DNA from: Gammaproteobacteria bacterium
GTDB taxonomy: Bacteria; Pseudomonadota; Gammaproteobacteria; JABABF01
NCBI GenBank assembly: GCA_965205525.1
Contig: OZ242171.1
Span: 1,869,098-1,933,097 of the forward strand
Length of the DNA stretch: 64,000 bases
Direction: 5' to 3'
Shown here: positions 6,972 through 61,719 of the stretch, piece by piece
Position numbering within the stretch: the stretch's first letter is position 1
Layout of the letters: each line of letters starts with the position of its first letter
Notes under the pieces: generated by a model
Database searches by the model: none
What the model was told of the DNA's origin: nothing
What the model saw: only the letters and a program-made list of their open reading frames with translations
Translations under genes and position numbers: made by a program

Positions 6972-7131
6972 AAATTGGCTCACTGCAGTGGGGCACGCAG
7001 TCTACTGCTGACTTCTCTTTATCCTGTCATGCCGCAGTCTTGAATAATGGCCTTTTTAATGAGTTTCGTCCGCATTGACTAAAACAGCAGCAGATGGCGG
7101 ACTAACCAATGATTGGAGGCAGGCGACAGAT

Positions 7132-7890
7132 CTACTCTCCAAAAGAATAGTTGAACTTTTCTATTTCCCACTTCGCAAATTCTGCAACCAAGTCACGCGA
7201 TTCGTTATCATAATACTCAGAATAATGATATTCCCCTTGTGTACGCTCTATATGCTCTATCAGAGGAAGCTTCTTCCCAATCTCTGGATAATTAATCTTT
7301 TCCCCGATATAGGCAAGATCCTCCTGCCAGTTTTCATGTTTTGCAACAAAATCTACAATCATATCTCCATCTTCATCAAGCAGGTATTCTCTTGCAGGCC
7401 TAATGGAAAATTTCTCCTCCTTTTCCTCCTCCAAAAGTATATACGCCAGCCAATGCCCAAACATCGGCTTTAAGACAATAGGAGGCGGCAAGATTATACA
7501 ATCAAATATGTTTTTATGATGAAGGAAGAAAAACGATAAATACCAGCTCCATGGGTTTCTTACCATACTAAAAGTGAAGATTTTCTGCCACAGCTGATCT
7601 CCCAGACACATGTGCATCTGTTGCGCTGTGCTATGGTCTGCTATAAATGGCAGAATGCGCCGCCTCAAAAGACCAGTTCTATGAATAAAATCATTCCTCC
7701 CGTAAGGCCAGCCAAATTGCCCCCATAACTCCTGCTTAATAGAGGGGGAACCTGTGCAAGGAATGTCTACAAACCAGCAGTCTGCTTTGGAAATTCTACT
7801 GCGAATGGAATACCAGACAATTTGCTTAATAGTAGACAGCGGCAAATACTTCGCCCAACGCGCATAGCGCGGACTATACCATAAGGACAT
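7132..7890 (-). CDS. sulfotransferase family 2-like protein (copy A, motif-degenerate)
   Basis: 252 aa in a low-GC segment. 5'-PSB-like motif is DIPCTGSPS (expected IPKTGGTS) and the 3'-PB region is FTFSMVRNPWSWYLS (expected RNPxDR). C-terminal ~110 aa are ~85% identical to copy B. Confidence 0.55.
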   Translation of the reverse strand: MSLWYSPRYARWAKYLPLSTIKQIVWYSIRSRISKADCWFVDIPCTGSPSIKQELWGQFGWPYGRNDFIHRTGLLRRRILPFIADHSTAQQMHMCLGDQLWQKIFTFSMVRNPWSWYLSFFFLHHKNIFDCIILPPPIVLKPMFGHWLAYILLEEEKEEKFSIRPAREYLLDEDGDMIVDFVAKHENWQEDLAYIGEKINYPEIGKKLPLIEHIERTQGEYHYSEYYDNESRDLVAEFAKWEIEKFNYSFGE

Positions 7891-8002
7891 AACACACCTC
7901 TCTTAGAAAAAGAATTTCATGCCGGCACACAGTAGTCCCCTCCCACACCTGCAAGCTTAGCCGGTGGTGGACTGGTAAATGATTGGAATGCAGGCGACAA
8001 GT

Positions 8003-8767
8003 CTACTCTCCAAAAGAATAGTTGAACTTTTCTATTTCCCACCTCGCGATCTCTGCAACCAAGTCACGCGACTCGCTATCATAATATTCGGAATAATGGT
8101 GTTTCTTAGGTGTGTATTGTTCCAGATGCAGCGATTCCCCAAGTTCCGGATAATTAATCTTTTCACTAATGTAAGCAAGATCCTCCTGCCGATTTTCATA
8201 TTTTGCAACAAAATCTACAATCATATCTCCATCTTCATCAAGCAAGAATTCCGCTATAGGTACTATAGGTACTGCACATTTTTCTGTAAGCCTATACATT
8301 AGCTGATACTTAAAAATTGATCTTATCTCATCAAGAAGGTAAGGGACCGGAGGAAAAGATTTACATTTGTAAAAGAAGTCTGATACATATCTGTCCCATG
8401 GATTTCTTACTATACTGAAAGTGAAGGTTTTCTGCCACAGCTGATGTCCCAGACACATACGCATCTGCCGCGCTGTGACATGGCGGTTTACAAATGGAAG
8501 AAGGAAGTCCAACGAAGAATTATATCTATGCCTAATCGGATTCGTCCTTTTATAATTGCTAGTCAAGTAAGGCCAGCCAAATTGCTGACTTAATTCAAAC
8601 CTAGTAGATGTAGAGGATGTGCGAGGTATATCTATAAACCAGAAACCTGCCTTAGAGATTCTATTGCCAGCGATATGCCAGACTATCTGGTCCAGAGAAA
8701 ACCGCTCCAGCAACCTTTCTAAATCTAAAAAAGGATGGACTTTGCCTTGTCTGTAGTGTAAAAGCAT
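8003..8767 (-). CDS. sulfotransferase family 2-like protein (copy B)
   Basis: 254 aa with DIPRTSSTS and FTFSIVRNPWDRYVSDFF motifs. Paralogous to the 7132..7890 gene; low GC. Confidence 0.6.
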   Translation of the reverse strand: MLLHYRQGKVHPFLDLERLLERFSLDQIVWHIAGNRISKAGFWFIDIPRTSSTSTRFELSQQFGWPYLTSNYKRTNPIRHRYNSSLDFLLPFVNRHVTARQMRMCLGHQLWQKTFTFSIVRNPWDRYVSDFFYKCKSFPPVPYLLDEIRSIFKYQLMYRLTEKCAVPIVPIAEFLLDEDGDMIVDFVAKYENRQEDLAYISEKINYPELGESLHLEQYTPKKHHYSEYYDSESRDLVAEIARWEIEKFNYSFGE

Positions 8768-9635: not shown

Positions 9636-9784
9636 TGTGCGTCAGCTGCAGGAGTATTGTCAGAAGTGCCAGTGGCCAGACCGGCCGGATCACAGCGGGC
9701 AAAGCCGGCTTACCCAGAACATTGACCCGCACTCGCCGCTCCCCTACACTTCCTTGTCCGAACAGCACCACCAAGAGAACAGAT

Positions 9785-11674
9785 ATGTGCGCACAGCAGG
9801 TACAGCAACAGGGAGACTGGGACATGCTGATACGCGGCGCCCTGGTATTTGACGGACGCGGCGGTGCGCCGGCAAAAGAGGATGTGGCGCTGCGGGACGG
9901 ATGCATTGCCGCCCGGGGCGCCAACCTTGCGCCGGAAGGGGCGCGGGAGACAGTGGATGCCGCCGGCTGCTGGCTGATGCCGGGACTCCTGGACATTCAC
10001 ACTCACCTGGATCTGGAGGTGGAGGTTAATCCGGGTCTCGGCGAGGCAGTGCGCCACGGCAGCACCACGGCGGTGGTAGGCAACTGCTCTATCGGCACCG
10101 CTTTCGGCCCCCAGCGGAAGAATGGCGAGGACCCCATCCTGGACTGCTTCACCCGGGTGGAGAATATGCCCAAGCGGGTTCTCAGGAAGTGTGTGGACAA
10201 AATGGACTGGGACAACACCGGCGACTACCTGGAGCACTTCAGCCGTATTCCTTTGGGCCCCAACATCGCCCCCCTGCTGCCCCACTCCATGCTGCGGGCA
10301 GAGGTGATGGGTGTGGATGGCGCGGTCCGGCGAGAGCCCACCGCAGAGGAGACCGAGCGTATGAAGGGCATTCTGCGGGAGGCGCTGGAGCAGGGCTACA
10401 TCGGCATGTCCTCCGACGGCATCGTCTTTCACTACCTGGCCAACGACCCGCACAAGGACAAGCGGCTGCCCACTCAGTTCGCCGGCCAGGGGGAGATGAA
10501 AAGCCTGGTGGACCTGCTGCGCAAGTACAGCCGCGTATGGCAGGTGACCCCAGATGGTGCAGACATGCGCACCACCTTCCGCCGCTTTCTGTGGACCAGC
10601 GGGCGGCTGCACGGCAAGCCGCTGCGGATCTCGGCGCTCACGGCAATGGATTTCAAGCCCAAGCCCGGCGCCTGGCGGGGGCTGCTTATGATGTCCTGGT
10701 TCCTCAACTCCTTCCTGGTGAAGGGACACTTTCACTTGCAGGCACTGGCCACCAACTTCCGCATATGGAGCAACGGGGTCACGACACCGGTATTGGAGGA
10801 GCTGGAATCTACCCGCGCCCTCATCGCCTGTGAAGCAGAGGATCGGGAGGGGCGTATGCGCCTGCTGAACGACCCCGCTTGGCAGGAGCAATTTCGCCGC
10901 GACTGGCAGGGGGTATCCGCTGCCGCTGCCGGTGCCGCTCGCAATCGCCATGCTACTTTTGAGCTGGATCCTGCGGACATCATCATTGATGACGGCTGCT
11001 CTATCCGCTGCTGGCGTGACCAGAAGCTGGTGTCCATCGTGGAGCGTTTTGCTGCCTACCGGGAGGGGGATCGGGAGGCAGCGAGATCGCCGGAAGAGGA
11101 GGCTCTGTTCAGAAGCGCGCCGGCAGACTGCGAAGGGGTAGCGGATTTCTTCATGCACTGCCTGAGGCAGATGGATCTGGATTTTCGCTGGTGGATGGAT
11201 GTGGGCAACCTGCGGCCCGATGTGCTGAAGAAGCTGGTGTTCAGCAAGTACACCCTGCCGGGTTTCAACGACAGCGGCGCCCATATCACCAATATGGCCT
11301 TTTATGACGGCAATCTGCTGACCCTGAAGATGGCCCAGGAAGATGGTCTCGGGCGGGTAGCAGAGGCTGTGCGCCGGCTGACGCGAGAGCCGGCAGATTT
11401 CTTCGGGCTGGATGTCGGGGGGATGGAGATGGGAGATCGGGCAGACCTGGTGCTGCTAAACCCTGATCAGCTGCGGGAATATGACACCAACACCAACCGG
11501 CAGCTTATCTATAACCCGCTGTTTGAGCACGATGTGATGGTGAACCGCTCCGACGGTGTGGTAGAGCAGGTGTACATTCGCGGCACGCGGGTATGGGAGG
11601 ATGGGTGCCGCTACACAGAGGCCCTGGGACGGGATACTCTGGGGCGAGTGCTGACTACTGCGCGGAGCGTATAG
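9785..11674 (+). CDS. N-acyl-D-amino-acid deacylase family amidohydrolase (D-aminoacylase-like)
   Basis: Motifs LIRGALVFDG, GLLDIHTHLD, GFNDSGAH and ADLVLLNP match amidohydrolase-3/D-aminoacylase. An alternative start is ATG 9824 (MLIRGA...), preceded by GGGAG. The 28-50 aa upstream extension in the ORF track is probably untranslated. Confidence 0.75.
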   Translation: MCAQQVQQQGDWDMLIRGALVFDGRGGAPAKEDVALRDGCIAARGANLAPEGARETVDAAGCWLMPGLLDIHTHLDLEVEVNPGLGEAVRHGSTTAVVGNCSIGTAFGPQRKNGEDPILDCFTRVENMPKRVLRKCVDKMDWDNTGDYLEHFSRIPLGPNIAPLLPHSMLRAEVMGVDGAVRREPTAEETERMKGILREALEQGYIGMSSDGIVFHYLANDPHKDKRLPTQFAGQGEMKSLVDLLRKYSRVWQVTPDGADMRTTFRRFLWTSGRLHGKPLRISALTAMDFKPKPGAWRGLLMMSWFLNSFLVKGHFHLQALATNFRIWSNGVTTPVLEELESTRALIACEAEDREGRMRLLNDPAWQEQFRRDWQGVSAAAAGAARNRHATFELDPADIIIDDGCSIRCWRDQKLVSIVERFAAYREGDREAARSPEEEALFRSAPADCEGVADFFMHCLRQMDLDFRWWMDVGNLRPDVLKKLVFSKYTLPGFNDSGAHITNMAFYDGNLLTLKMAQEDGLGRVAEAVRRLTREPADFFGLDVGGMEMGDRADLVLLNPDQLREYDTNTNRQLIYNPLFEHDVMVNRSDGVVEQVYIRGTRVWEDGCRYTEALGRDTLGRVLTTARSV

Positions 11675-14458: not shown

Positions 14459-16351
14459 TCAGGCCTGGCGGCGGTCAGCGGCGAAGCCGCCGCGCTTTTT
14501 GAGATGAACAAGCAGCAGCGAGAGGGCGACAGGAGTGACCCCGGGAATACGGCCTGCCTGGCCCAAGGTGACCGGGCGGCCAGCATCCAGTTTCTGGCGG
14601 ATTTCGGTGGAAAGCCCGGTTACCTGGCCGTAATCCATGCTGTCGGGAAGGATCTCCTCCTCGTGCCTTCGCAGCCGCTCAATCTCTGCCTGCTGTCGGG
14701 CGGCATAGCCGGCATATTTGATCTCTGCCTCTATCGCGCGGGCTGCCTGGGCTTCCATTACGGCATCCGTGGATTCTGCCTGAAGGTGGCGATAGCTCAG
14801 TTCGGGGCGCCGCAGAAGGCTGGCCAGCTTCTGCTCACGGCAAAGAGGTTCTTTCAAGTACCGCTCAAGACCGGATGCCAGGGCTGTGCCGGGACGAATA
14901 GAGGTGTGCTCCAGCCGCTGAATCTCGCGCTCTATAAGCTCTTTCTTCTCGCAGAATTTCCGCCAGCGAGCCTCGCCGACCAGGCCGAGCTCCCGCCCTT
15001 TTTCTGTCAGCCGCAGATCCGCATTGTCCTCCCGCAGCAAAAGGCGGTACTCGGCCCGGCTGGTGAACATGCGATAGGGCTCCGGTGCACCCTGGGTGAT
15101 AAGGTCATCCGTCAGCACGCCCAAGTAGGCCTGGTCCCGGTACGGGTGCCAGGCAGGACTGCCCTGCACCAGCCGCGCCGCGTTGAGCCCGGCCAAAATT
15201 CCCTGGGCAGCCGCCTCCTCGTAGCCAGTGGTGCCATTGATCTGGCCAGCAAAGAAAAGCCCTCGCACAAAGCGGGTTTCCAAAGAAGGCCGGAGATCCC
15301 GGGGGTCAAAGTAGTCGTACTCTATGGCGTAGCCGGGCTGTGTGATGCGGGCGTTCTCAAAGCCAGCGATAGAGCGGACCATTGCCTCCTGCACGGCCAG
15401 AGGCAGGCTGGTGGAAATCCCGTTGGGATAAATCTCAGAGCTTGTCAGCCCCTCCGGCTCAACAAATATCTGGTGGGAATCCCGCTCGGCAAAGCGCACG
15501 ACCTTGTCCTCAATGGAGGGGCAGTATCTTGGGCCACGCCCCTCAATGGCTCCCGAATGCATGGGCGACTGGTCCAGAGCGCCGCGAATAATCTCGTGGG
15601 TCTTCTGGCTGGTGCGGGTGATAAAACAGCTCACCTGATGCGGATGCTCTTCCGGCAGACCCAGATAGGACATCACTGGGACGGGGATGTCTCCGGGCTG
15701 CTCCTCCATTTTGCCAAAGTCCACTGTGTTCCCATCCAGCCTAGGGGGAGTGCCTGTTTTCAAGCGACCGACCCGAAAGGGCATCTCTCTCAGCCGGGCG
15801 GCCAGCGCCAAGGAAGAAGCCTCCCCCGCCCGACCGCCGCTCTTGCTCCGCAGCCCAATATGAATGCGACCGCCCAGGAAAGTGCCTGCGGTCAGCACTA
15901 CCGCAGAGGCCGAAAAGTGCTCTCCCGCGTCGGTAATCACCCCCTGAACACTTTCCCCGGATACCCGCAAATCCTCTACCGAGCCGGCCAAGAGAGAAAG
16001 ATTGGGCTGAGAGTGCACCAAAGCCTGCACCGAGGAGCGATACAGGGAGCGATCTGTCTGGGCCCGGGTAGCCTGCACCGCGGCACCCCGGCTGGCATTC
16101 AGCACACGAAAATGAATTCCAGCACGGTCGGCAGCACGGGCCATGATGCCATCCAACGCATCCACCTCGCACACCAAATGGCTCTTACCGATACCCCCTA
16201 CCGCCGGATTGCAGGACATCTGTCCAATTGTCTCCAAGCGCTGGGTCAGCAGAAGTGTCTTACAGCCTACTCGCGCGGCGGCAGAAGCCGCTTCAACGCC
16301 AGCATGGCCGCCGCCGATGACAATCACATCAAAAGTGCTAAGAGACTTCAC
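14459..16351 (-). CDS. mnmG: tRNA uridine 5-carboxymethylaminomethyl modification enzyme MnmG (GidA)
   Basis: [19 protein letters not shown]-binding N-terminus, full GidA-like length and a conserved C-terminus. A GTG start at 16351 ([15 protein letters not shown]) gives 630 aa like E. coli MnmG. The ORF-track ATG at 16465 would add an atypical 38-aa Cys-rich extension. Confidence 0.88.
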
Positions 16352-16819
16352 AAGCTGAGAATAGAAAATACAGAGAGAGCAAATTATAACGGTGCGCCGC
16401 CTGCACACCAAGACAGCCTGCAGACTGTCTCCGCTAGAACAGCAGATGCCGAAGTGTAGGTGCATCCTTTCCTCGGCATGATCAAAGATTTAAGATTCAG
16501 CAGTCTCTCCCTACTTCTATTAATTAATCATGTTCCAATTGGATATATAAGAATTAATAGCAGTAGTAGTAGGGCCTTCCCTTGGGCCTTGCATGAAGGT
16601 GGGTAACTTTTTTCTTCGTAGGAAAAGCAGCAGCTTGCCGATGCCATCTCAAGTGGATCTGTATGGGAAGTATATGTTGCTGAGCCTGGGAATGAAGGAT
16701 GTTTGACCTAGGGATAAGTGTGGATGAGATTTCTCTCTATCTATTGGAGAAGAAAATCATCCACATCTATGCACACTTTTCCTTTGGGTTCTCCTCATGT
16801 GCGGGAGTTGGCCTGGGAG
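16352..16819. promoter_or_regulatory. mnmE-mnmG intergenic region with AT-rich block and DnaA-box-like 9-mers (candidate oriC/DUE or mnmG promoter region)
   Basis: AT-rich stretch tacttctattaattaatcatgttccaattggatatataagaattaatag. Two inverted DnaA-box-like 9-mers, TGTGGATGA and TCATCCACA (each one mismatch to TTATCCACA), lie ~40 bp apart. GATC sites are also present. Confidence 0.35.
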
Positions 16820-20731: not shown

Positions 20732-20866
20732 TCAGGGGGCAAGCCTTTTGCGCCCTTTCTGCCGCCGCCGGCTGAGAATCTGACGACCGCTGCGGGTGGC
20801 CATCCGCGCCCGGAAGCCGTGGGTGCGCTTGCGCCGAATTACGCTCGGCTGATAGGTGCGTTTCAT
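20732..20866 (-). CDS. rpmH: 50S ribosomal protein L34
   Basis: The reverse strand encodes [44 protein letters not shown] (44 aa). Not in the ORF track because it is under 60 aa. Confidence 0.9.
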
Positions 20867-21692
20867 GGTGTCGTTCTGCTAAAGCGGCTTTAGGGCAGCA
20901 GGCCATTGTAAGGCAGGATGGTGTAGGGGTCAAAAGGACGGGCGGCGGTAAAGCAGTGTTTTCCAATGCTGAAACGCTGTGGGCGAGCTTTGCCAGAAGG
21001 GGTGTGAGCGGTTTGTCTGCCGAGTTTTTTGCGGGGGGAAGGACGGGCGGCGGTGAAGCAGTGTTTTTCAATGCTGAAACGTTGGGGACGAGCTTTGCCA
21101 GAAGGGGTGTGAGCGATTTGTCTGCCGAGTTTTTTGCGGGGGGCTCGCCCCCCGTGGGTCCCCTGCCCTCGCCTGGCAGCACTTGCCAAGGGGGCGGCCC
21201 TCCCTGTGGTCTTCGACCACTGCTCTCCCTTGGCGGATCTTCCCAAATTCCGCTCTGACATCCCCTCCTGTGGAAAACCAAATCCGGCTATGAAGCTTTA
21301 ATTTCCTGTCTTAGAGAGGTGGAGCGCGATAGCCAAGATGCCGAATTTTGCTGTCTTTTGCACAACTTGTCCACACCTCATGATAAATTTTTTCCTTATG
21401 CTGCAAGGAGAAATGGACAATAGGCCCTATTTGCACAAATTTCACACATATATTTCAAACGCCTGTTAATAAATGGCCTTGCCTCCTTGCCTAGGGAGTA
21501 ATCCGGCACTAGGATTTTCTCTTGTTGAGGGGGCAAAAAAAATTCCTCTTGGCGCTGGTGAATTTTATCGTCATCTAAAGAGTACAAGGATACAGGGCAG
21601 CTCGTACGATGTTGCTAGGATCCGCTTCCCTTCTGGGTTGCGGGAAGCCCGGGAGTAGTGTTTTGGGCATCCGACAAAGAGGGGAATCGCCT
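20867..21692. promoter_or_regulatory. rpmH-dnaA intergenic region (dnaA/rpmH promoters; candidate oriC as in Pseudomonas-type gene order)
   Basis: 826 bp non-coding. DnaA-box-like TTGTCCACA (~21405) and TGTGGAAAA (~21263), an AT-richer block at 21410-21510, and the 105-bp tandem repeats. Confidence 0.4.
20936..21145. repeat. perfect-register tandem direct repeat, 2 x 105 bp (~93% identity), upstream of rpmH
   Basis: ggacgggcggcggtaaagcagtgttttccaatgctgaaacgctgtgggcgagctttgccagaaggggtgtgagcggtttgtctgccgagttttttgcgggggg repeats immediately with about 7 substitutions. Confidence 0.8.
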
Positions 21693-23288
21693 GTGAATCC
21701 AGAAATATGGCAAAGTTGCTTGCAGCATCTGAAAGGCAGCCTGAGTTCTTCTGAATTCAGTACTTGGATACATCCGCTGCTGGCTGAGACAGACCCATCG
21801 GGTCTGACTCTGTTCGCCCCCAACGCCATAATCCGGGACCGGGTCAGCAGCCATTATCACGCCTGCATAGAGGATGCCCTGCGCGCCTCTGGGGGCGACG
21901 GTTTCTTTATCCGGGTGGAGGTGGTGGGCGCGCCTGCTTTGGCGCCGCTGCCAGCCCGGTCGGCAGGGACTGCGGCTACAGGCATGAATGGCAGCTCCGC
22001 TGCTGTTTCGGAGGCTAAAGCCGCCCTCAAGGGAGTGAAAGCGAATGCTGTATCCGCTGAGGTACCTATTGGGAGAGACACCCCTCTCCGCATGAGCGGC
22101 GCATCCGCTGCAGTGCAGCGGAGCGGCACCGCCCCCCCTCTGGGGGCCGGGCGCACCGCTCCCGCCGGGATGAACGGCAGGCCGGCAAAGGCTCCGCTGA
22201 ACGGCTATGCCCCCGCTGCAAGAAGGGTGGGTGCAGCCTTGCCTCCTCGGCAGACGACCGAGAGGGCCTTAGCCCCCGAGTTCACATTTGAAAACTTTGT
22301 GCAGGGGCCTTCCAATCGCCAGGCATTTTCCTATGCGAAGCAGATTGCGAAAGCAGATTCGCGCATGAACAGCAGTCACAGCCCGCTGGTGATCTACGGC
22401 GGCGTCGGCCTCGGCAAGACACACCTGATGCATGCGGCGGGCAACGAGCTGCGCCGCAGCCAGCCGGACATGAATATCGTTTACTGCTGTGCGGAGGATT
22501 TTGTAAACAGCATGACGAATTCCCTGCGAATGAGCGGGATGCCCGAGTTCAAGCGTTACTATCGTTCGGCGCAGGTGCTGCTTATAGATGACATCCAGTT
22601 CTTTGCCGACAAGAAAACATCCCAGGAGGAGCTGCTTCATACCATTGATACACTGCAGCAGCGAGGCCAGAAGATCATCATCACCTGCGATCGGCAGCCG
22701 CAGGAAATGGAGGGCCTGCATGCGCGCCTGTGCTCCCGCTTCGGTCGCGGGCTGACCATCGTCATCGACCCGCCGGACCTTGAAACCCGCACTGCAATCC
22801 TGAAACACAAGGCCGCCGCCATGAAGCTGGAGCTGCCGGAGGACTGTGCGCTGTTCATCGCCCAGAAGCTGCGCTCCAATGTGCGCGAGCTGGAAGGCGC
22901 GCTGAATCGCGTTTCCGCAAGCGCAGGCTTTTATGAGCGCCCGATCAACTTGGGCCTTGTGCAGGAAGCGCTGGCAGACATGCTTGTCGCGCATAATCGC
23001 CAGGTGCGCATAAAGGACATCAAGATAAAAGTGGCGGAATATTTTAATATGCAGGTTTCTCTTCTCCATGCGCGCACCCGTGTTCGCAACGTAGTGCGTG
23101 CCCGCCAAGTGGCGATGGCCCTGGCCCGGGAGCTCACCAGTGAGAGTCTGCCGAGCATCGGTTATACCTTCGGCCGGCGCGACCACACGACGGTGATGCA
23201 TGCCTGCAAGAAGATCAAAGAACTGCGCTGCAAGAACCAGGAAATTGAGCGGGCCTACAGCACTCTGCACCGTCAGTTGACGACCTGA
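21693..23288 (+). CDS. dnaA: chromosomal replication initiator DnaA
   Basis: GTG at 21693 is preceded by AGAGGGG. N-terminus NPEIWQSCLQHLKGSLSSSEFSTWIHPL; AAA+ region GGVGLGKTHLMHAAGNEL...LLIDDIQFF; DNA-binding domain ...TSESLPSIGYTFGRRDHTTVMHACKKI. A long Ala/Gly/Pro-rich domain II linker is present. Confidence 0.9.
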   Translation: MNPEIWQSCLQHLKGSLSSSEFSTWIHPLLAETDPSGLTLFAPNAIIRDRVSSHYHACIEDALRASGGDGFFIRVEVVGAPALAPLPARSAGTAATGMNGSSAAVSEAKAALKGVKANAVSAEVPIGRDTPLRMSGASAAVQRSGTAPPLGAGRTAPAGMNGRPAKAPLNGYAPAARRVGAALPPRQTTERALAPEFTFENFVQGPSNRQAFSYAKQIAKADSRMNSSHSPLVIYGGVGLGKTHLMHAAGNELRRSQPDMNIVYCCAEDFVNSMTNSLRMSGMPEFKRYYRSAQVLLIDDIQFFADKKTSQEELLHTIDTLQQRGQKIIITCDRQPQEMEGLHARLCSRFGRGLTIVIDPPDLETRTAILKHKAAAMKLELPEDCALFIAQKLRSNVRELEGALNRVSASAGFYERPINLGLVQEALADMLVAHNRQVRIKDIKIKVAEYFNMQVSLLHARTRVRNVVRARQVAMALARELTSESLPSIGYTFGRRDHTTVMHACKKIKELRCKNQEIERAYSTLHRQLTT

Positions 23289-23844
23289 GTGTCTGCTCTC
23301 ATCAGCGGAAGCAGTGTGCCTGCTGTTTAAATTTAATGGATACTTTGCCTGTCCCTTGCATAAGCTTTGCATGCCGAATCATCGCCGCTGCAGGGCTGCG
23401 CAGCAGGTTTCGCGACACAATTTTTTTGCGCGGTTTTTTCCTGTCGGTGAGCTTTTTGTGAAAGATTTTTTCCGACTGAATCTTTCTGCACATGCTGCGG
23501 GTGCCGCCGCGCTAAAGACGGGACATCTGCGACACGGAGCTGCCCTTGGTCCGCTTCGCTTCCCGCCGCTCTCTCCGGTGCCAGAGGAAGCGCAATGCGG
23601 CGGCCAGAGGGCTCCGTGCCGATGAACCGCATAGGATCAATCCTGCATCAGGGGTGCAATGTGAGGGCTGAAGGCACTACAATACTGTCATCCGCTCCGC
23701 AGCTTGTCAGCAGAGTGCTATCGCTCTGGCGGAGACTCCCCTCCCGGAGCTTTTGCGGCGTAGCCCAACGCCTTGGGAGAGGCCTTTGAGAAGCCCCCTC
23801 GGTGCTGGGAAAGGAAGCAACCGATATATGAGAGACCTGTCGAA

Positions 23845-24984
23845 ATGAAACTGAAAATTACTCGCGAAACTCTGCTGAAACCATTGCAGACCACCGCCAA
23901 CATTGCCGCCAATCGTGTCAATGACAGCGGCCAGATTCGGGGCGGAGTGCTGCTGCGCCTGAAGGACGAGCATTTGCAGCTGACCGGCACCGGCAATCGC
24001 CTTCAGCTCCTTGGCGTGTCGGACCTCCCTGGAGTGAAGGGCAGCAGCGGAGAGATCGCCATGAGCGGCACGAAACTGCTAGATATATGCAATAAGCTGC
24101 CTAATGACAGCGAGTTAGCGATAGAAGCCGACAAAGAATGGGTTGTTCTCAAGTCCGGCCGGAGCCGTTTCAAGCTGGCTGTCTTCCAAGCTGCGGAATA
24201 TCCGGTCATCGCCGAGATGGAGGACGACTTGGAAACCTCCGTCAAACTGTCGGCAAAGGACCTTATTCGCCTGATTCGCAGAACGGTTTATGCCATGGCC
24301 ACGGAGCAGGATGTGCGGGATTACCTGCGCGGCGTCTTGCTGGAGGCCCGAGATGGCCAGCTGCGCTCCGTTGCCACAGATGGCCACAGGCTGGCCATGT
24401 GCTCCATGAAGGCCAGTGTTTCGGTGAAGGAGCCCCAGCAGGCCATAGTGCCCCGGGCCAGCGCTCAGGAGATGCTGTCCCGCCTGGACACCTTGGATGA
24501 CAAAGATGTGGAGGTGGAGCTGACCTTGGGGCAGAAATATATCCGCCTGGTCACCCCATCGCATCGCATTGTGTCTATGCTCGTAGATGCGAAATATCCC
24601 GACTACGAGCGTGTCATACCCCGGGACGGCAACAACGAAGCCGTCTTCTCCAGAAAGAATTTTGAGCAGATGCTGAGCCGAATCAATACTGTCCTTGTGG
24701 AAGAAGATGTTCCGGTGGTGCGCCTGGCCTTCTCTGAAAATATGCTGCGCATGCTGGCGCGCAACTATCAGAATGAGGAGGCGGAAGAGGATATGGAGGT
24801 GGAATATAAGGGGGAGTCGCTGGAAATAGGTTTTAATATCCGCTATATGCACGACCTTATGCATGCCTTTGGGCATGAGGAAGCAGTGCGGATCACCATG
24901 ACTGATGCCAACAGCAGCGCCCTGATTCAGAGTGCAGACAAGAATCCGGACACGCTGCATGTGATTATGCCGATGCGCTTTTGA
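23845..24984 (+). CDS. dnaN: DNA polymerase III beta sliding clamp
   Basis: MKLKITRETLLKPLQTTANI...; three-domain clamp length (379 aa); C-terminal MPMRF. Confidence 0.85.
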   Translation: MKLKITRETLLKPLQTTANIAANRVNDSGQIRGGVLLRLKDEHLQLTGTGNRLQLLGVSDLPGVKGSSGEIAMSGTKLLDICNKLPNDSELAIEADKEWVVLKSGRSRFKLAVFQAAEYPVIAEMEDDLETSVKLSAKDLIRLIRRTVYAMATEQDVRDYLRGVLLEARDGQLRSVATDGHRLAMCSMKASVSVKEPQQAIVPRASAQEMLSRLDTLDDKDVEVELTLGQKYIRLVTPSHRIVSMLVDAKYPDYERVIPRDGNNEAVFSRKNFEQMLSRINTVLVEEDVPVVRLAFSENMLRMLARNYQNEEAEEDMEVEYKGESLEIGFNIRYMHDLMHAFGHEEAVRITMTDANSSALIQSADKNPDTLHVIMPMRF

Positions 24985-29684: not shown

Positions 29685-30185
29685 GTTGACCGCGCTCCGG
29701 ATCTCACACCGACCGATGGTCGTGACCGCCAGGAAGCATCCGCTGCCATTCAAAGATGCGGGGCAGCGGCTGAACATAGCCGGTCACATCGGCAATGGCC
29801 AGACGCTTCGGGTCCAGCAGCTTTGCTTTGAGAAGAATATTCTGGCCTGACAGCTCTCCCAGGCGATAGACATAGGTGCCGCTGGCGGTCGGTGTCATAT
29901 TCGGCTATGTGTATATGCAGCTTTTCGGCATCTCAGGTGTGCCCCAGATTGCGGCCGCTCAAGGGGTTCAGGCGCGTCTACTGGGGCGGGGGCCAATGTG
30001 CTGGGAAGTATCGCAGTGAATTGAATAAAGCGAAAAGACTGCCCCATGCTGGTCTCCTGACTGTCGTCGCCGCTATAAGCGTGGCGCGGGGCCCAGCCGT
30101 CAGCAGAGGCAATATAATGCATTTAAGGGTGTGTCTGCAGTATCTGTCGGCATCTGCCCGTGCTCTTTGTCACCGGCGAGTGGGG

Positions 30186-32096
30186 ATGACTCTGAATTTG
30201 CTTCTTCGGCACAAAACTTTAGGCCTGCTTTTCCCAAGGGGATTTGCGGCCATTGCTTTCTGCTGTCTATGGCTGGCATTTGCGCCCGCCTCTGCGCAAT
30301 GGATATCCACCCCTTTGCAGGACGGGCCCGCACCTGCGGACACGAAGTCCGTCCCCGAAGACAGGAAGCCCGCCTCTTCAGCTGCGAAACCTGCCTCGTC
30401 TTCTGCCCCCGCTTTCCCGGCCCCCTCACGCACAGTGCGCACATCGCCGGTTTCGGGCCGTACCCCTCCGGTTTCTGCACGCGTGCCCCCGGTTTCAGTC
30501 CGCACTCCTCCGGTCTCAGCTCGCACTCCTCCAGTTTCCGCCCGCACACCGCCGGTTTCGGGCCGAATTCCGCCGGTCAATGTGCGCACCCCCCCGGTTT
30601 CAGTCCGTACCCCTCCGGTTTCTGCACGTGTGCCTCCAGTCTCGGCTCGCACTCCTCCAGTTTCTGCACGTGTGCCTCCGGTCTCAGCTCGCACGCCTCC
30701 AGTTTCCGTCGCCACACCGCCGGTTTCGGGCCGAATTCCGCCGGTCAATGTGCGTACGCCCCCCGTTTCAGTCCGTACCCATCCGGTTCCTGCACGTAAG
30801 AAGCGCGTTCAAGGCAGAAGGCAACAATTTTACCGAAATACACCGCCATTCTCTGCAAAGATGCCTCCCATTTCCCTGCCCTTGGTCCCCCCTGTTTCCG
30901 GCAGGCCGGACCCGCTCTCTGTGCGCTTGGGCACTCCCCCCATGCAGAAGATATCTCGGGCCTCTGCTGACATGCAGCGGAGCTTTTCCCCGAGACCCGC
31001 TCCCCTTATGCAGCTAGCCTTTGCCTACCCCCAGAAGCCTGTGAGGGCATCCGCATATCCGGCCCTGGCACAATCATCCCCCGCACCTGCACCTGTGTCC
31101 GCCCCTGCGCCACCGAAATCAGCTCCTGGCTGTGAGGGCGGATCTTCTGCTCTGGCGGAGATGATCCCTGTAAAAGGCGGCTCTTTCAAAATGGGAGACG
31201 AGCATTTTTATCCAGAGGAAGGGCCGTCGCGCCGCGCTCATGTAAAGCCTTTTCTAATTCGGCGATTTGAAGTCACCAACGCCGAGTTTGCCGAGTTTGC
31301 CGATGCCGCCGGCTATCGCACATTGGCCGAGCGCGGCCTGGCTGCAAAGGACTACCCCCAAGTGCCGCCGGAAATGCGAGTCCCTGGATCAGCGGTTTTC
31401 ATACCCCCCGCCGCACCCGAGACTGCCAGCCCGTCCCGCTGGTGGCGTTTCGTGCCCGGGGCGAATTGGCGACATCCTCAGGGGCCGGATAGCAGCGTTC
31501 AGGACAAGCTTTACCATCCGGTCGTTCATATCGCCTATGAGGATGCCCTCGCCTATGCCCGCTGGAAGAAACAGCGACTGCCCACGGAGGCGGAGTGGGA
31601 ATATGCTGCTCGCAATGCCAGTGCCCAAACCCCGCCGCCAAAAGCATCCGAGCAGAGGAAAGCGCCCCGGGATGCCAATGTCTGGCAGGGGCACTTCCCC
31701 GACAGGAACACCTTGGAGGATGGCTATGCCGGCACTGCCCCGGTCGGCTGTTTTCCGCCGAAGGGTGCCGGACTGCACGACATGATCGGCAATGTCTGGG
31801 AATGGACATCAAGCTGGTACTACCCGCACCACAGCAAAGAGCACAGTCGGGCCCAGCCTTCGCCCGGCTTTGACCCGAACCAGGCGGGTGCGCCGGTTCG
31901 GGTGGTGAAGGGCGGCTCCTACCTGTGTGCGGAGAACTACTGCATGCGTTTTAGACCGTCGGCGCGGATTGCCCAGGAGGTTGGGCTCGGCACTTCGCAT
32001 ATCGGCTTTAGGACGGTCGCCGACATTCCGGCAGAGCATGCGTCTGGCACCGGGAGCTCTGACAGCAAACCGAAGGCTCCCTCACGCAAAAAATGA
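30186..32096 (+). CDS. secreted formylglycine-generating-enzyme (FGE/SUMF1)-domain protein with N-terminal Pro-rich heptad-repeat region
   Basis: Signal peptide MTLNLLLRHKTLGLLFPRGFAAIAFCCLWLAFAPASAQ; about 18 RTPPVSA heptads; C-terminal FGE-sulfatase domain (GGSFKMGDE, RLPTEAEWEYAARN, GNVWEWTSSWY, RVVKGGSY). The ORF-track start at 29892 adds 98 aa of non-signal sequence and is unlikely. Confidence 0.7.
   Translation: MTLNLLLRHKTLGLLFPRGFAAIAFCCLWLAFAPASAQWISTPLQDGPAPADTKSVPEDRKPASSAAKPASSSAPAFPAPSRTVRTSPVSGRTPPVSARVPPVSVRTPPVSARTPPVSARTPPVSGRIPPVNVRTPPVSVRTPPVSARVPPVSARTPPVSARVPPVSARTPPVSVATPPVSGRIPPVNVRTPPVSVRTHPVPARKKRVQGRRQQFYRNTPPFSAKMPPISLPLVPPVSGRPDPLSVRLGTPPMQKISRASADMQRSFSPRPAPLMQLAFAYPQKPVRASAYPALAQSSPAPAPVSAPAPPKSAPGCEGGSSALAEMIPVKGGSFKMGDEHFYPEEGPSRRAHVKPFLIRRFEVTNAEFAEFADAAGYRTLAERGLAAKDYPQVPPEMRVPGSAVFIPPAAPETASPSRWWRFVPGANWRHPQGPDSSVQDKLYHPVVHIAYEDALAYARWKKQRLPTEAEWEYAARNASAQTPPPKASEQRKAPRDANVWQGHFPDRNTLEDGYAGTAPVGCFPPKGAGLHDMIGNVWEWTSSWYYPHHSKEHSRAQPSPGFDPNQAGAPVRVVKGGSYLCAENYCMRFRPSARIAQEVGLGTSHIGFRTVADIPAEHASGTGSSDSKPKAPSRKK
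30429..30797 (+). repeat. 21-bp (7-aa) tandem repeat array, ~18 copies, consensus RTPPVSA; contains a higher-order duplication
   Basis: ccggtttc[ag]g[ct]ccg[tc]acccctccggtttctgcacg... repeated. The segment SGRIPPVNVRTPPVSVRT occurs twice about 190 bp apart. Confidence 0.8.
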
Positions 32097-42902: not shown

Positions 42903-45900
42903 TTGTATTTGAAAATCCGCTTACTACTTAATACAACTGCCAGAAAGCCCGATGCGGGCAATCAGAGGCATGGAATAAGGGGATATCTTGCAGGAATCCT
43001 GCTGTTTTCACTTTCTCTGGCGGTCGTCCCTGTCGGTGCGCAGGAGCCTGTGCCGGCGCTGAGTTTGGAAGTGACCGGGCTGCCAGCGGGCAGCGGAGCC
43101 ATCCCCGAGCGGCTTCAGCTTTTCCTTGACTGTACCGAGGGGGAAGAAAACGATAATTGTTTCCAAGGACTTAAAGGACCCTCTACAGCCTTTGGCGGCA
43201 TTGCCCTCAGCCCGGACGGCAGGCTGCTGGCAGTTCTGGGGGCGGGCGATAATGCTCTCAGTCTGTGGCAGGTGGATACTGCCTCTGACACTATCAGCCG
43301 GAGTGCTCTTTATTGCAGTTCTGTGGGTTCTTGCCCAGGAGGCACGGATGTAGAGTATGGCCTTGAAGCGCCAAACGATCTCACTTTCAGCCATGATGGC
43401 GAGCTGCTGATGGTTGCTAATCTTGAATCAAGATCTTTAAGCGTCTGGCAGGTGAATGCAGAAGCTGGAACGCTCACTCGGAGCGCAGTCTACTGGGATA
43501 GCGGCACCACAGGCAGAGGCAACTGTCAAGACGTTTTCAGGGACATAGACCAGTGCTCTGCTAGGGAGAACAGTGACGGTGCAAGAATAGGATTAGTTGA
43601 AAACGGCGGGTATCTCGCCGACGGGCTGAACGGAGCTTTTGATGTCGCGGCCAGCCCGACTCATGATCTGCTGTTCATTACAGGCAGGAGTGATAGAGCT
43701 CTCAGTGTGTGGGCAATAGATGCGCAGGCCGGCACTCTCACCCAGATTGCACTTTACAAGGGCGGCAGTTCAGGGGCAACGGCTTGCTCAGGCACAGGCT
43801 TCAGCGGGGCAAACTGTGAGGACGAGCTGAGCGGATTGCAGGGAGTGCGCGGTCTCACAGTGAGTCCGGACGGCAGGTTGGTATTGGTTGCGGGCTCTGG
43901 CGAAAATGCTCTGAGCGTCTGGCGGGTGAACCCGGAAGCCAGCGGTACTGCAGTCTTGACGCAAACCGATATTTATGAAGATGGGGCAAATGGCATTGAC
44001 GGTCTTGGCGGTGTGCAGGATATTGCAGTGAGCCCGAATGGTCGCCTCGCATTTGCCACAGGTACTGACGAAAATGCACTCAGCGTATGGCGGGTGAATG
44101 CGGCGGCTGGCACCCTCACCCAGACCGCCCTTTATTGGGATATTAATGCTGAGAACTGCACAGATGCCGAGGAAGCTCAGGGAAACTGCTTTGATGGTCT
44201 CACATCGGTTCGCAATCTCACCCTCAGCCCGGACGGCAGACTGCTGTTTGTGACCGCGGTAACCGATGATTCCCTCAGTGCCTTTGAGGTGGATGATTCC
44301 AGCAGCACCCTTCGGCAGACTGCTCTCAGCCGGATAAGGTCCAATGTGCTTGTCGGGTTAAACACTGCAGCCGATGTCATTTTCGGGCCCCTCAGCGCGC
44401 CCGATGCCGCTGTCGGATTGGGCAACCCGGCCGGTGTTGTCGTCAGCGCCGCCGGCACAGTATTTCTTAAGGCGGGTGCGGGCACTGCCGTAGGCGCTCT
44501 TTCCACTTGGCGGGTGACACCTCTTGTGCCGACATACAGCTCAGTTGTGCTGACCGTGGAGACGGATAGGGTGCTGTCTACGCCGACAACAGCAGCGGTG
44601 AAATTGATATCACGGCGGGACATGCGAGAGTTGCTGCTGCCAGTGACTCTGTCCAGCGCGTCGGTTGAGGCGACGATTCCGGCAGGCATGCTGACCCCGG
44701 GCCTGTGGGATATTACTGTGCAAACGGAGCCGGGTGCGGCGGACGTGACAGGGGCACAGGGACTCTTGAGGGTGGCGCCGCTGTCTTTGCGTCTGCAGAG
44801 AGAGCAGCAGGGAGACCAGGTGAATCTTCGTGCCACAACTACAGAAGGCCCGCCGATTGCGGCGATTACAGTTACAGTGCAGGTGACGGATACCGACGTA
44901 AGTACAGCGGTCACTTTTACGCTCACTCCCGAGAATTTCCAAGATGTTCTCGTTCCGTTTCCGGCGGGTGCCCTGCCCTCGGGACGTTACAGTGTCTCTT
45001 TAACGAGCTCGCCGACCGGCACTATAAACACGGTTTCAACGAGAGCTGCGTTGATGGTGCGTGATTACACTCTGAGCTTGGAGGCACCGGCCGAGACTCT
45101 GACAGCTAACGAATTCTCGGTCACGGTGAGCGCAGCGCCCTCCCTGGAGACGACACTTAGGGTTACAGTAACACTGCGAAATGACGGAGTGGCGCTACAG
45201 ACGCGCCTGGCAATCTTAACGGCGGCCACTCCCTCACAGGCTGTGGCTTTCACGGCACCCGATGCTTCCTCCCCCATAACCGTGATGCTGGATACGGAGA
45301 CTATGGCCGAGGATGAGTCTGTGACAGTGGTGGAGGCAAGTATCGCGAATGTGCTTATTCTGCCGTTGCCGGCCGTTCGCCTTGTGTTCAGTGAGAACAC
45401 AGCGCGTATCGGCATGGATGTCAGTGTGAATGGTGTGCGTATTATGGTGGACAGCATGCCATTGACGGCTGCGATTGTGACAGTCAAGGCGACACTGCGG
45501 AATAGCCGCCAGACGAGCATAACGGCGTCGGTTGAAGTGGGGCCGGATAATTTTGAGAACCTCCGCGCTATGTTTTCGGTGGTCGGCGTGCCGGCAGGGC
45601 TCTGGGACTTGTCGGCGAGCTCTTCACCCCCCAATGCTCTGGATACCACTGGCTTCACCGGCACATTGCGACTAAACGCATTACCGTTCTTGGTGTTGCC
45701 AGAAGATAATATGCCGGCGGGGCGCAGCCTGAAGGTTTCATTGCGGACCGTTCTTCTTGTGACAGAGGAATTCAGGCTCAGCGCGATAAGGCAGGGAAGC
45801 AGCCCAGAAGTGCGGATAGAAGCAGATACGCCCATCACCTTCACAAATACAGACGCCGGTACGGCGACGTTTGCAGCGGGCTTAGATTCAGGAGTGTGGA

Positions 45901-48900
45901 GATTTCGGCTGTCGCCAAGACCGGGTGAGAACTTCGTGGAAATTTTCTCTTCAGGCTTTCCCATGCTGACGGTATCGCAGCGGCTTCTGACGCTGACACC
46001 GACCCAAGAGGGCGCCCAAGTGCAGGTTCACTTAGCGGCTATAGGAGGAGCGCCGGCGACGCCGGTGACAGCGATGGTGGTGGCAGAGGGTGGCGCAACG
46101 AGCAGGACACTGGAAATCACTCTTGGGCCAGATGCTGCTGAGAGTGTCTCTGCATTCCCGCCAGGCGTTCTGCCGCCAGGTGTCTATGATTTTTCAGTGG
46201 TTTCTTTATTGCCGCCCGACATCGCAATGATTGATAATGAAACAGGCACAACTACGCTGACAGTGGTATCGGGACTGAGTTTCATGCTGCCGACGGGCTC
46301 AACGCTGCCGGCGGGAAGCACAGTGATGGTTACGGTAATACGCAACAGCTTGGGAAGTGCGCTTCTGGATATTGATGCATATACTGGGGATGGAGACATT
46401 GAAGACAGCACGATAGTGTCAGCCAACGAAGTCGTTTCTTTTCCTGAGGATATGCTTACTGGGATGGCGGTATTTTCTGCGGGGAGTTTGCTTCCCAACA
46501 TATGGAGATTTAGGAGTAGTAATGATCTGAATATTGGGAGCAATGATAGGGTCACTGCATTGACCATAGAAGATCGGGTCCAGGTAACCCTGACCCCCGA
46601 TGCATCTGCGGTGTCGGCAGGGGGGGCGGTCCGCCTGGTTGCGACCGCGGTGCCTTCGCTGGCTGAAAGCCTCGGCAGGGTGCTCATTACGGTTACGGCG
46701 ACCGGAAGCAGTGGCCTCGCCTCTGGGCAATCAGAGGAGCAGATGGTCACTCTGTCATCGGAGCTGAATGCTGAACCAGTGATATTCCCGCGCCTGGCTT
46801 CGGGCGTCTGGATGATTAACGGGACGGACGCAAGAAACGCTGTGACCATTCCTGAAACAGAAGTCACCGTAGTGCTGTCAGCGGTAATTTTTGAGTCGAC
46901 AGCGTCACTGACCGATATAGATGGCGCCATGCGGCGGGCGGTGGCAGTGGGCAGCGATGTGCGCCTTGGACTGACGGCAGACCCTGCACCGGGCACGTCG
47001 GTGACGGTCACGGTGAGTGCTGTAGATGGCGATACGGGGGAGACGACAACGACAGAGGTCATGCTCTCGTCGAGCGCACCTGCGGCTGAAGCGCTATTCA
47101 GCGGGGCGAATGCCCTGGGTGTGGGCACATGGGGGTTTACCGCTGTGGCGAACCCGACTGATACAGTGGTATTTCAAGCAGCACCGATGGTGGTTGTGCT
47201 GGTGCCGACAATAATTCTCACATCGGACAGCGATGGAGAGACTGTGCGCGTAACCCAGCCGGTGCGCTTGACGGTAGCCTCAATGCCGTTTGCGCCAGGC
47301 ATGCCTGTAGAGATCAGTGTCCTTGCATCTCTTGGAGATAGAGAAAGCACGCAAATGGTCACCCTGTCGCCAGAAATGAGCTCGGCGTCGGTCGAATTTA
47401 CGCCGGACGTGCTGGGCCGGGTGGTGGGTGATTGGACCTTTACAGCAACAGCAGAGCCGGAGGGATTGGCAGATGTATCCGGGGCGGCGGTGACCGTGCC
47501 GGTAGGGCTGCCTGCAGTGCTTCTGACGCCGGTGGGAACAAGCTTAGACACAGGCAGCAGCGTGGTGCTGACAGTGAGCACAGATGCTCCGATAGAGGGC
47601 GAAGTCAGCATCACGGTGACAGGTATGTCAGAGGCAGGTCCGTTGCCACCCATGGCGGTTGTGCTGAGCCCGGGTGATACTGAAGAGACGGTAGATTTTG
47701 GTGTACTGCCCGAAGGCGAATACACCTTTACGGCAACATCCACGCCGACAGGCACTGTAGAGACCGTTTTTTCGACAGTGACGGTGATCATCGCCCCGGG
47801 CGGGAACCTATTGGACAGCCTTTCTCTGACACCGAGACAAATCGTGCAGGGCACTGTCGCCATCCTGAGGGTGGAGAAGGTCAGGTCGGCAGACAGTGCG
47901 CAGACTGTGACCGTTCTAAGAGATGGGGTGCCAGAGGGGGATCTGGTTATTCCTGCTGATTCACCCTCTGCCGAGGCAATGGTGCGGGGAGACGGTATCG
48001 GCGCATACACCTACTCTTTGGGAGACCCGAACAGCGAGCTGGCCAACGAAGAAGAGGAGCGTTTCCGACAGCCGCTGCGCGTGGTGGCCGATGTGCAGCT
48101 TAGCTTCGGGTTAAGTTTTGGCTATGTTGGTCAGTCTGTGGGCATCCGTGCAGCCTTGGTGGATGCAGACGGAAGCGCCGAAAGCCTGGACACGAGCGTG
48201 ACGCTGACCCTGCGGGCTGAGGAAGAAACGAGCGGGATGGTTTTGGATGACATCTCGCTGACAATCCCTGCAACAACGATATCCGGCAGCGCCGTATTCC
48301 TGCCGTCCATAGCCACTACTTGGACAATAACCGTAAGCGAGATAAGTCCGCCGGATGCCCTGCTGGTGCCGGCGGTCAGTATTGCACCGGCAGCAATAGC
48401 TATCAGGGAGCCGCTGCAGCTGGTGCTTATGCCGACTATTTCTTCGGTGCTTATCGGCAGTCCGATTGAACTGATGATAACTGCTGGCAACGCAGCAGAT
48501 GTGGAGGTGACGGCACTGACGGTAAGAGCCGTGCGGGGAGAAAATGGGCGATCAGACAGCCTGAGTCTGCCCACAGAAAATGAGGTGACAGTACAGCTAG
48601 ACAGCCTGAGTCTGCCCACAAATGTGGTGTTCAGGGCGGGCGATTTGGGGATCGGTGAATGGCAGTTTGAATTAATTGCAGAGCCCGCCTTTGCAATATC
48701 AGTTTCAGCGCCGGCGACAGTGACCCTGCTGGATGCAAACCTGGACCTCAGCTTGCCGGACGGGGACGGGGTAGGTGCGGATGATTTGATATTGCTATTG
48801 CGCTACCAGATATTGTGTGTCAGGCGGGTGCGGCCGGAATTTGACTGTGCAGACGGCCGGAATCTTACGCGCAACTTGAGCGCCGCCGACTATGATCTGC

Positions 48901-59675: not shown

Positions 59676-59697
59676 CATATTCTGTTTTAGCCTAGTA

Positions 59698-59725
59698 GAC
59701 GAATTCGCCACCCGTCAAAATCGCC
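59698..59725 (+). repeat. 28-bp direct repeat copy 1 (gacGAATTCGCCACCCGTCAAAATCGCC), 120 bp upstream of the GIY-YIG gene
   Basis: Identical 25-mer recurs at 60823-60847. Confidence 0.7.
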
Positions 59726-59844
59726 CCAGACACGGGTCTCCCCCTCCGTGGAGCAGGTCGCTAAGAACTTATTATAATGAAAATCCATGTCATAATCGAT
59801 TATGGTAATTAGTCAGAGTTGCCTTAATTTAATAGGAAAAAATC

Positions 59845-60675: not shown

Positions 60676-60819
60676 AGATTTAGGGAATATCTGATTAATA
60701 CGCGAAAACTTTGTGGTCAATGCGAAACTCTCTTTTATTATTCAGATATGCGGCATTGGTGCCGATGAAACTGCGGCACTTTTCACCACTTCAGCAACAA
60801 ACACATGCTATGCTGTAAA

Positions 60820-60847
60820 GATGAATTCGCCACCCGTCAAAATCGCC
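60820..60847 (+). repeat. 28-bp direct repeat copy 2 (gatGAATTCGCCACCCGTCAAAATCGCC), 37 bp upstream of the methyltransferase gene
   Basis: Identical 25-mer to 59701-59725. Confidence 0.7.
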
Positions 60848-60883
60848 GTGGCAAGCTGGGTTGCAGCAACCTAATCGGAGAAC

Positions 60884-61648: not shown

Positions 61649-61719
61649 TAGTGCAGGAACGGAAGCAAGAGCAGCCGGCAAATGTCCAGTTTTTCCTGTT
61701 CCTTTCTTCCCGCACTAGT

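Follow-up and report, generated by a model that had tools for sequence, protein, structure and literature searches.

The closest described counterparts of the locus studied here are the origins of Pseudomonas aeruginosa. This species has two functional origins 5.2 kb apart, oriC1 in the rpmH-dnaA spacer and oriC2 upstream of mnmG (bioRxiv 10.1101/2025.08.05.668638, citing Yee & Smith 1990 and Jiang et al. 2006). According to the same preprint, the oriC1/oriC2 pair is predicted in most Halomonadaceae, where oriC1 repeatedly loses its unwinding element (DUE) or disappears (Weigel 2025, bioRxiv 10.1101/2025.08.05.668638). The signature that it describes as diagnostic of gammaproteobacterial origins consists of a left gene transcribed away from the origin, a DUE, DnaA-trios, an R1 box and an IHF site whose conserved C lies 21 bp downstream of R1. 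DnaA-trios are defined in a further study, in which the search program BUS limits the trio-to-box spacer to 16 bp (PMC8287927).

We analysed a 64-kb stretch of DNA (64,000 nucleotides, hereafter the window) that contains a gene order of this type. An earlier note had placed the origin between rpmH and dnaA and drawn attention to a 105-bp unit present twice in that spacer. We describe both the repeat and the origin-like features around it, which are listed in Table 1.

Gene order and relatives of the origin region

The window carries parB-parA-rsmG-mnmG-mnmE-yidC-yidD-rnpA-rpmH on one side and dnaA-dnaN-recF-gyrB on the other; Pfam agrees with this order, which is of the Pseudomonas type, as had been proposed. 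The translation of dnaA is 100% identical to a database protein (P0001). Searches with DnaA found a sister clade with 67% identity (P0002 plus eight cluster members) and a single genome with 57% (P0003), all other DnaA proteins being at most 46% identical over their full length, with the best named matches in Halieaceae. A scan of a genome collection returned distant DnaA genes alone (31-46% identity). We compared five related loci: four from the sister clade (L010, L011, L016 and L017) and one from the more distant genome (L013). The synteny of the origin region is common to all five. One of the sister-clade contigs comes from JGI sample 3300000051, 'Botbay15'.

The sigma-70-like promoter of rpmH matches 10 of the 12 consensus positions, and TTGACC-17-TACAAT/TATAAT is found at the equivalent position in L010 and L013. 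Its conservation in three species, together with the consensus match, indicates that this promoter is very probably genuine.

Table 1. Coordinates of the features of the origin region, in positions of the window.
Feature	Position	Strand	Remarks
mnmG	14459-16465	-	Pfam gene order
mnmG-mnmE spacer, second origin-like module (oriC2/E. coli-type)	16466-16819		43% GC
AT-rich stretch, putative unwinding type	16510-16559		22% GC; based on composition
DnaA-trio run TAATAGCAGTAGTAGTAG	16555-16572		six units (NAR x6)
GC cluster GGGCC			after the trio run
R1-like box GGTGGGTAA	16598-16606	reverse-oriented	degenerate
IHF-like site AAGCAGCAGCTTG	16625-16637		1-2 mismatches to WATCARNNNNTTR across species
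Further DnaA boxes of the mnmG-mnmE spacer	16709, 16719, 16757, 16767		
rpmH (ribosomal protein L34, 44 aa)	20732-20866	-	translation; orthologues in relatives are PF00468 Ribosomal_L34
rpmH-dnaA spacer	20867-21692		826 bp
Sigma-70-like rpmH promoter, very probable	20905-20933	-	-35 TTGACC 20933-20928, 17-nt spacer, -10 TACAAT 20910-20905
Copy 1 of the 105-bp unit	20934-21038		starts at the base adjoining the rpmH -35 hexamer
Copy 2 of the 105-bp unit	21039-21143		99/105 identical to copy 1
G6/C6 hairpin GCGGGGGG-CTCG-CCCCCCGT	21136-21155		straddles the right end of copy 2; centroid fold
Weakly conserved GC-rich stretch, repeat to first DnaA box	21144-21268		GC ~60%
DnaA-box cluster and AT-rich block	21269-21472		six boxes in 204 bp, TTWTNCACA with at most 1 mismatch
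DnaA boxes of the cluster	21269, 21356, 21367, 21429, 21440, 21464		TGTGGAAAA, TTTTGCACA, TTGTCCACA, ATTTGCACA, TTTCACACA, TGTTAATAA, in this order
Strongly conserved dnaA upstream/leader region	21473-21692	+	long invariant blocks in three species
dnaA (531 aa, GTG start, long Ala/Pro/Gly-rich linker)	21693-23288	+	translation

Two origin-like spacers

The cumulative G-C minimum of the window lies at 17,959, ~3 kb from the rpmH-dnaA spacer, which is consistent, as far as 64 kb shows, with the earlier proposal of an origin in this region. As in P. aeruginosa, the gene order includes two long spacers, here ~4.5-4.6 kb apart (5.2 kb in PAO1), and the elements of the diagnostic signature are distributed unequally between them.

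By sequence, the more complete gammaproteobacterial oriC signature appears to be that of the mnmG-mnmE spacer, and it is conserved in all three species. Transcription of mnmG runs away from the spacer, the AT-rich stretch is near the mnmG side, and moving away from mnmG one finds this stretch, the trios, the GC cluster, the R1-like box, the IHF-like site and the further boxes. The stretch equivalent to the AT-rich one has 20-22% GC in L010 and L013. Only seven runs of at least five NAR units occur in the window. The trio run is one of them, and it is conserved in both L010 (TAATAGTAGTAGTAGTAGTAG) and L013; its distance to the R1-like box (25 bp) is longer than the limit used by BUS (PMC8287927). 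The R1-like box is the element that differs from a P. aeruginosa-type oriC2: it is degenerate in the window, in L010 (GAGGGATAA) and in L013 (GGGGGATAA), with 2-3 mismatches to TGTGNAWAA, and its position and GGrTAAC core are kept in the three species. The putative DUE, trios, R1-like box, 21-bp interval, IHF-like C and further boxes otherwise follow the oriC2 pattern in their order. Counted from the end of the R1-like box, the C of the IHF-like site is base 22 in 3/3 species, and when the sites are compared (AAGCAGCAGCTTG in the window, AAGCATTGGCTTG in L010, AAGCAGGGAGTTG in L013) the consensus positions are conserved and the four free positions (NNNN) vary. Searched with blastn against E. 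coli genomes, the spacer gave no match.

The gene rpmH is transcribed away from the rpmH-dnaA spacer, as the oriC1 layout requires, and the DnaA-box cluster of this spacer is the densest of the 64-kb window (background of 1.5 boxes per kb), with the boxes at 21269, 21356, 21367 and 21464 conserved in position in L010 and L013. The boxes had been described as weak: the motifs quoted are there, but the scan with TTWTNCACA places them in the densest cluster of the window. The box at 21269 is a reverse-oriented R1-type box with 0 mismatches to TGTGNAWAA (TGTGGAAAA also in L010, TGTGGACAA in L013), and both this consensus box and the box array are shared with a P. aeruginosa-type oriC1. The cluster may serve as an oriC1-type assembly region for DnaA, as a set of dnaA autoregulatory sites, or as both.

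Other oriC1 elements are missing from their positions. By composition, the rpmH side has no AT-rich unwinding element at ~2 helical turns upstream of R1: the interval 21100-21299 has 61.5% GC, and with a rpmH-facing side of ~60% GC there is no unwinding element where a Pseudomonas-type oriC1 has one. The AT-rich block (21290-21480, lowest 50-bp GC of 30%) lies beyond the box, and likewise in L010 and L013. No IHF site with the conserved C 21 bp downstream of R1 was found at up to 1 mismatch to WATCARNNNNTTR, and the only conserved IHF-like site of this spacer is on the opposite strand (21456-21468). The rpmH-proximal part is GC-rich and unconserved, unlike that of oriC1, and is filled here by the 210-bp repeat. 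Given the absence of DUE and IHF site and this GC-rich part, the spacer resembles the class described as 'DUE-less / downgraded oriC1' (bioRxiv 10.1101/2025.08.05.668638).

The locus therefore seems to fit the known dual-origin pattern, with a complete oriC2-type module at mnmG and rpmH-dnaA boxes devoid of a rpmH-side DUE. The assignment of oriC to the rpmH-dnaA spacer agrees with the gene order, the G-C minimum and the box cluster, but not with the missing rpmH-side unwinding element; as the assignment of a single origin, it overlooked the fuller signature of the mnmG-mnmE spacer. We also considered the dnaA-dnaN spacer (23289-23845) as a third origin; it has two relaxed boxes, a minimum of 36% GC and a conserved dnaN promoter-like block, and is not favoured.

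A two-copy tandem repeat upstream of rpmH

Tandem Repeats Finder detected one tandem array (20934-21143; period 105, 2.0 copies, 94% matches, 0% indels, score 378), and a second repeat search returned the identical pair of 105-bp copies. Compared base by base, the copies are identical at 94.3% of the positions and differ by five transitions and one transversion, without indels. The register is lost at once on both flanks, hence there are exactly 2.0 copies, head-to-tail. The earlier report of a 2 x 105-bp tandem repeat is thus confirmed by both the program and the direct comparison, although the coordinates that it gives (20936-21040 and 21041-21145) are shifted by 2 bp and its identity (~93%) is slightly below the measured one. 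All the motifs that it quoted are present (gccgagttttttgcgggggg, gctgaaacg, TTGTCCACA at 21367 and TGTGGAAAA at 21269).

The array, which is GC-rich (57-64%), starts 67 bp from the rpmH ATG on its upstream side and extends from about -36 to -245 with respect to the inferred rpmH start site. Each unit includes an imperfect dyad (CAGTGTTTTC-N7-GAAACGCTG) that is degraded in copy 2 (CAGTGTTTTTC...GAAACGTTG), with 3/6 substitutions in or beside it. The G-run of the hairpin at the right end of the array comes from copy 2, and its 3' arm (the C-run) is outside the repeat; neither strand has a T-run after it, and the terminator scan did not call it. The two copies have equal length and the same T6 and G6 homopolymer runs despite the six substitutions, which is a point against neutral drift.

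We found no recognisable functional motif in the unit. The array has no DnaA box (none at up to 2 mismatches to TTATCCACA, none at up to 1 to TTWTNCACA), the unit has no short internal repeats beyond the 105-bp register, and none of its motifs recurs elsewhere in the 64-kb window beyond chance. The promoter and terminator scan gave no sigma-70-like promoter or terminator within the units, nor any terminator in the rpmH direction, which contradicts the suggestion of a duplicated promoter or attenuator. Rfam returned nothing at gathering thresholds and chance-level hits only in a permissive search (E > 0.28), and the folding energy of the array is no better than that of shuffled sequences on either strand (z = +0.50 and +1.22). 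A coding reading was discarded: two frames run through the unit without a stop, but 5/6 and 6/6 of the differences between copies are non-synonymous in them, and Pfam gave a chance AP2 match alone (E = 0.016). A literature search on tandem repeats in rpmH-dnaA spacers gave nothing relevant.

The repeat is specific to the window among the loci compared. No tandem repeat is present upstream of rpmH in L010, L011, L016, L017 or L013, and no homologue of the unit was found by blastn-short or with a two-copy nhmmer profile in the five related loci (~85 kb) or in the rest of the window. In the alignment with the relatives the 210 bp of the array are extra sequence; when they are removed, 127 bp separate the -35 from the first DnaA box, compared with 120 bp in L010. 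At the equivalent position L010 has a sequence (AAGGGCGGGCA) that matches the initial ~12 nt of copy 1 (AAGGACGGGCGG), indicating that local sequence was duplicated in place rather than inserted from elsewhere.

The patterns of variation among the relatives show in which part of the spacer the array lies. The spacers of the four sister-clade strains all have 720 bp, without indels. Across rpmH and the spacer these strains have 12 variable columns, 8 of which are in the ~125 bp that separate the -35 from the first DnaA box, i.e., at the location of the repeat, the others being in the remaining ~595 bp of the spacer (4) and none in rpmH. In L013 the equivalent stretch is ~640 bp long and unalignable, and in the window the part that follows the array (21144-21268) aligns with L010 in patches only, e.g., TGGTCTTCG. 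The sister-clade variation and the unalignable L013 stretch indicate that the repeat occupies the one freely evolving part of the spacer. The divergence between copies (5.7%) is of about the same order as the strain-level variation of that stretch.

Origin and possible roles of the repeat

We consider that the array most probably (with a probability of roughly 0.6) arose by a lineage-specific tandem duplication in situ, followed by drift, and has no specific function. Replication slippage or unequal recombination would have produced it in place, in what appears to be the least constrained part of the spacer, from the rpmH promoter to the first DnaA box, and point substitutions would then have gathered in each copy to give the six differences. 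The array would have no sequence-specific role in the initiation of replication or in the expression of rpmH, and its only likely effect would be an extra 105 bp between the rpmH -35 and the DNA upstream of it. Among the options listed in the earlier note, slippage is the best supported, but not as a recent event: six substitutions between the copies imply that the duplication is not very recent. The array has much in common with VNTR or minisatellite-type loci, namely two copies in perfect register, moderate divergence, a location in variable non-coding DNA and the lack of a recognisable functional motif. The hallmark of VNTR loci is copy-number variation between strains.

The DNA adjoining a -35 hexamer is the contact zone of activators and of the alpha subunit of RNA polymerase, so an array in this position could have a regulatory effect. 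Each unit could be the site of a transcription factor or nucleoid protein acting on the rpmH-rnpA promoter or on the divergent dnaA, in which case the duplication would double the number of sites. The contact with the -35, the imperfect dyad and the preservation of length and register in both copies speak for such a cis-regulatory module. Yet the dyad is degraded in copy 2, the motifs of the unit do not recur in the window beyond chance, and nothing like the unit is found upstream of the conserved rpmH promoter in the relatives. We find this explanation unlikely.

The 210 bp of extra sequence relative to the sister species could also represent the insertion, upstream of rpmH, of a dispersed repeat or a small MITE- or REP-like mobile element, now in two copies. 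A 14-mer made of the unit end and its flank (TTTGCGGGGGGCTC) recurs in a L010-specific insertion near dnaA, a match equalled in 5/300 shuffles. However, the ends of the unit (AAGGACGGGCGG... and ...TTTTTTGCGGGGGG) are not complementary, so there are no terminal inverted repeats, the flanks differ (GGTCAA and CTCGCC), so there is no target-site duplication, and the left end of the unit corresponds to ancestral local sequence. Further copies are absent from the window and from the ~85 kb of related loci. The array had no blastn match in plasmid and phage collections, viral contigs scanned with 20-24-mers of the unit gave none, and two 20-mers searched in JGI metagenome contigs gave zero and two matches, both attributable to chance and limited to the 20-mer. 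A mobile origin is thus quite improbable. Homology of the unit to the rpmH-proximal DNA of the relatives or to the L010 insertion was also considered and rejected, the shared 14-mer being a single, marginal match.

A more speculative proposal, which we regard as decidedly improbable, sees the array as a lineage-specific protein-binding module set against the rpmH -35, which would insulate or silence the rpmH-dnaA origin or couple the transcription of rpmH and rnpA to origin activity. The array does sit where a Pseudomonas-type oriC1 would hold its unwinding element, and if the insulating or silencing role were true, the mnmG-side module would be left as the firing origin.

Iterons are ~17-22 bp long, occur in several copies, usually three or more, beside an AT-rich region, and serve as binding sites for a cognate Rep initiator whose gene is nearby. 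The array resembles the iterons of plasmid and secondary-chromosome origins in consisting of direct head-to-tail repeats in origin-proximal intergenic DNA, and its position, 126 bp from the densest DnaA-box cluster and ~3 kb from the local G-C skew minimum, would suit iteron-like or other initiator or regulator repeats of an oriC1. But it has only two copies, each of 105 bp rather than ~20 bp, without sub-repeats, internal periodicity or DnaA boxes, in GC-rich DNA and outside the box cluster. It is also absent from relatives that keep the DnaA boxes, the AT-rich block and the mnmG-side module. There is no plasmid-type Rep gene nearby: no Rep-like ORF was found, the neighbours being rpmH, rnpA, yidD and yidC on one side and dnaA, dnaN, recF and gyrB on the other. 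The iteron-like reading of the earlier note does not withstand these observations, and a role of the array as a replication element is highly improbable. Finally, an assembly artefact, in which a repeat was collapsed or expanded in a metagenome-assembled genome (apparently one ~2.0-Mb metagenome contig), is scarcely credible given copies that differ by substitutions only and have identical homopolymer runs, because assembly or long-read errors would rather give identical copies or homopolymer indels.

If the in-place duplication is the right explanation, the repeat alone matters little: it would be an ordinary intergenic tandem duplication, at most a useful strain marker. The corrected picture of the origin region is more useful, and it is a warning against relying on gene order alone to assign oriC. 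The organism, a deep-branching and uncultivated gammaproteobacterium, has a ~2-Mb genome; its nearest DnaA relatives are only 67% and 57% identical, and its origin region would extend the pattern of a kept oriC2 and a downgraded oriC1 to a distant lineage.

Origin-type elements between mnmG and mnmE

Judged by sequence elements, the spacer between mnmG and mnmE is a complete candidate for the oriC2, or E. coli-type, origin layout, and the same signature is kept by both the sister-clade locus L010 and the more distant L013. The earlier note does not mention it. The elements are listed in the table, together with the hairpins of the rpmH-dnaA spacer and two repeat-bearing reading frames.

Positions and properties of selected features (window coordinates unless a locus is named)
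Feature	Position	Strand	Detail
22%-GC stretch	mnmG-mnmE spacer, 16466-16819		part of oriC2/E. coli-type signature
DnaA-trio run	mnmG-mnmE spacer, 16466-16819		TAATAGCAGTAGTAGTAG; part of signature
R1-like box	mnmG-mnmE spacer, 16466-16819		part of signature
IHF-like site	mnmG-mnmE spacer, 16466-16819		C 22 nt after R1-like box
Additional DnaA boxes	mnmG-mnmE spacer, 16466-16819		part of signature
Window hairpin	21385-21412		CCTTATGCTGCAAGG
L010 counterpart	L010 9590-9614		CCCTTGTGCCGCAAGGG
L013 counterpart	L013 ~9700-9725		CCCTTTGATAGCAGGG
734-aa ORF	29892-32096	+	contains 21-bp periodic repeat
2062-aa ORF	42903-49091		beta-propeller (Lactonase/WD40-like) repeats near N-terminus

Sequences flanking and within dnaA

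Between rpmH and dnaA, the AT-rich block of the spacer includes a small hairpin bordered by A- and T-runs. Its stem is conserved and its loop varies among the window, L010 and L013; the L010 copy is called as a minus-strand terminator by a terminator scan. Nearer to dnaA, the sister-clade loci (L010, at 9735-9870, and also L011, L016 and L017) carry an insertion of ~130 bp that is missing from both the window and L013. It contains GAGTTTCTTCTTTGCGGG and GAATTTCTCTTTGCGGGGGGCTC, similar to the end of the window's tandemly repeated 105-bp unit (GAGTTTTTTGCGGGGGGCTC), and the 14-mer common to insertion and unit exceeds chance only marginally (5/300 shuffles).

On the other side of dnaA, the spacer to dnaN (23289-23845) is unusually long, at ~557 bp versus 481 bp in L010. 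This spacer, where some other bacteria have oriC, includes several T-tracts (23420-23475), a conserved -10-like block (GCACTACAATACTG, near 23675) and few DnaA boxes. DnaA itself (21693-23288) reaches 531 aa because domain II, roughly codons 95-215, is a long low-complexity linker rich in Ala, Pro, Gly and Ser. Linker length varies among relatives (proteins of 501 and 589 aa), and the L013 dnaA contains a 27-bp tandem repeat in eight copies (L013 10285-10500).

Repeats and low-GC islands elsewhere in the window

The 734-aa frame has at least 12 units of a 21-bp (7-codon) repeat at 30412-30810 (62-80% identity) and an FGE-sulfatase domain as its C-terminal half; in relatives, too, genes for FGE-sulfatase proteins lie near gyrB. 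The 2062-aa frame has 66-nt internal repeats at 43209, 43863 and 44226.

Two neighbouring minus-strand paralogues (7132-7890 and 8003-8767, 79-89% nucleotide identity; noted at 7119-7655 and 7990-8502), one with a weak Sulfotransfer_2 match, lie within a low-GC island where 50-bp windows fall as low as 20% GC. A second block, at 59600-62500, has 45-52% GC against a window average near 58%, with 50-bp windows as low as 18-20%, and may have been acquired horizontally.
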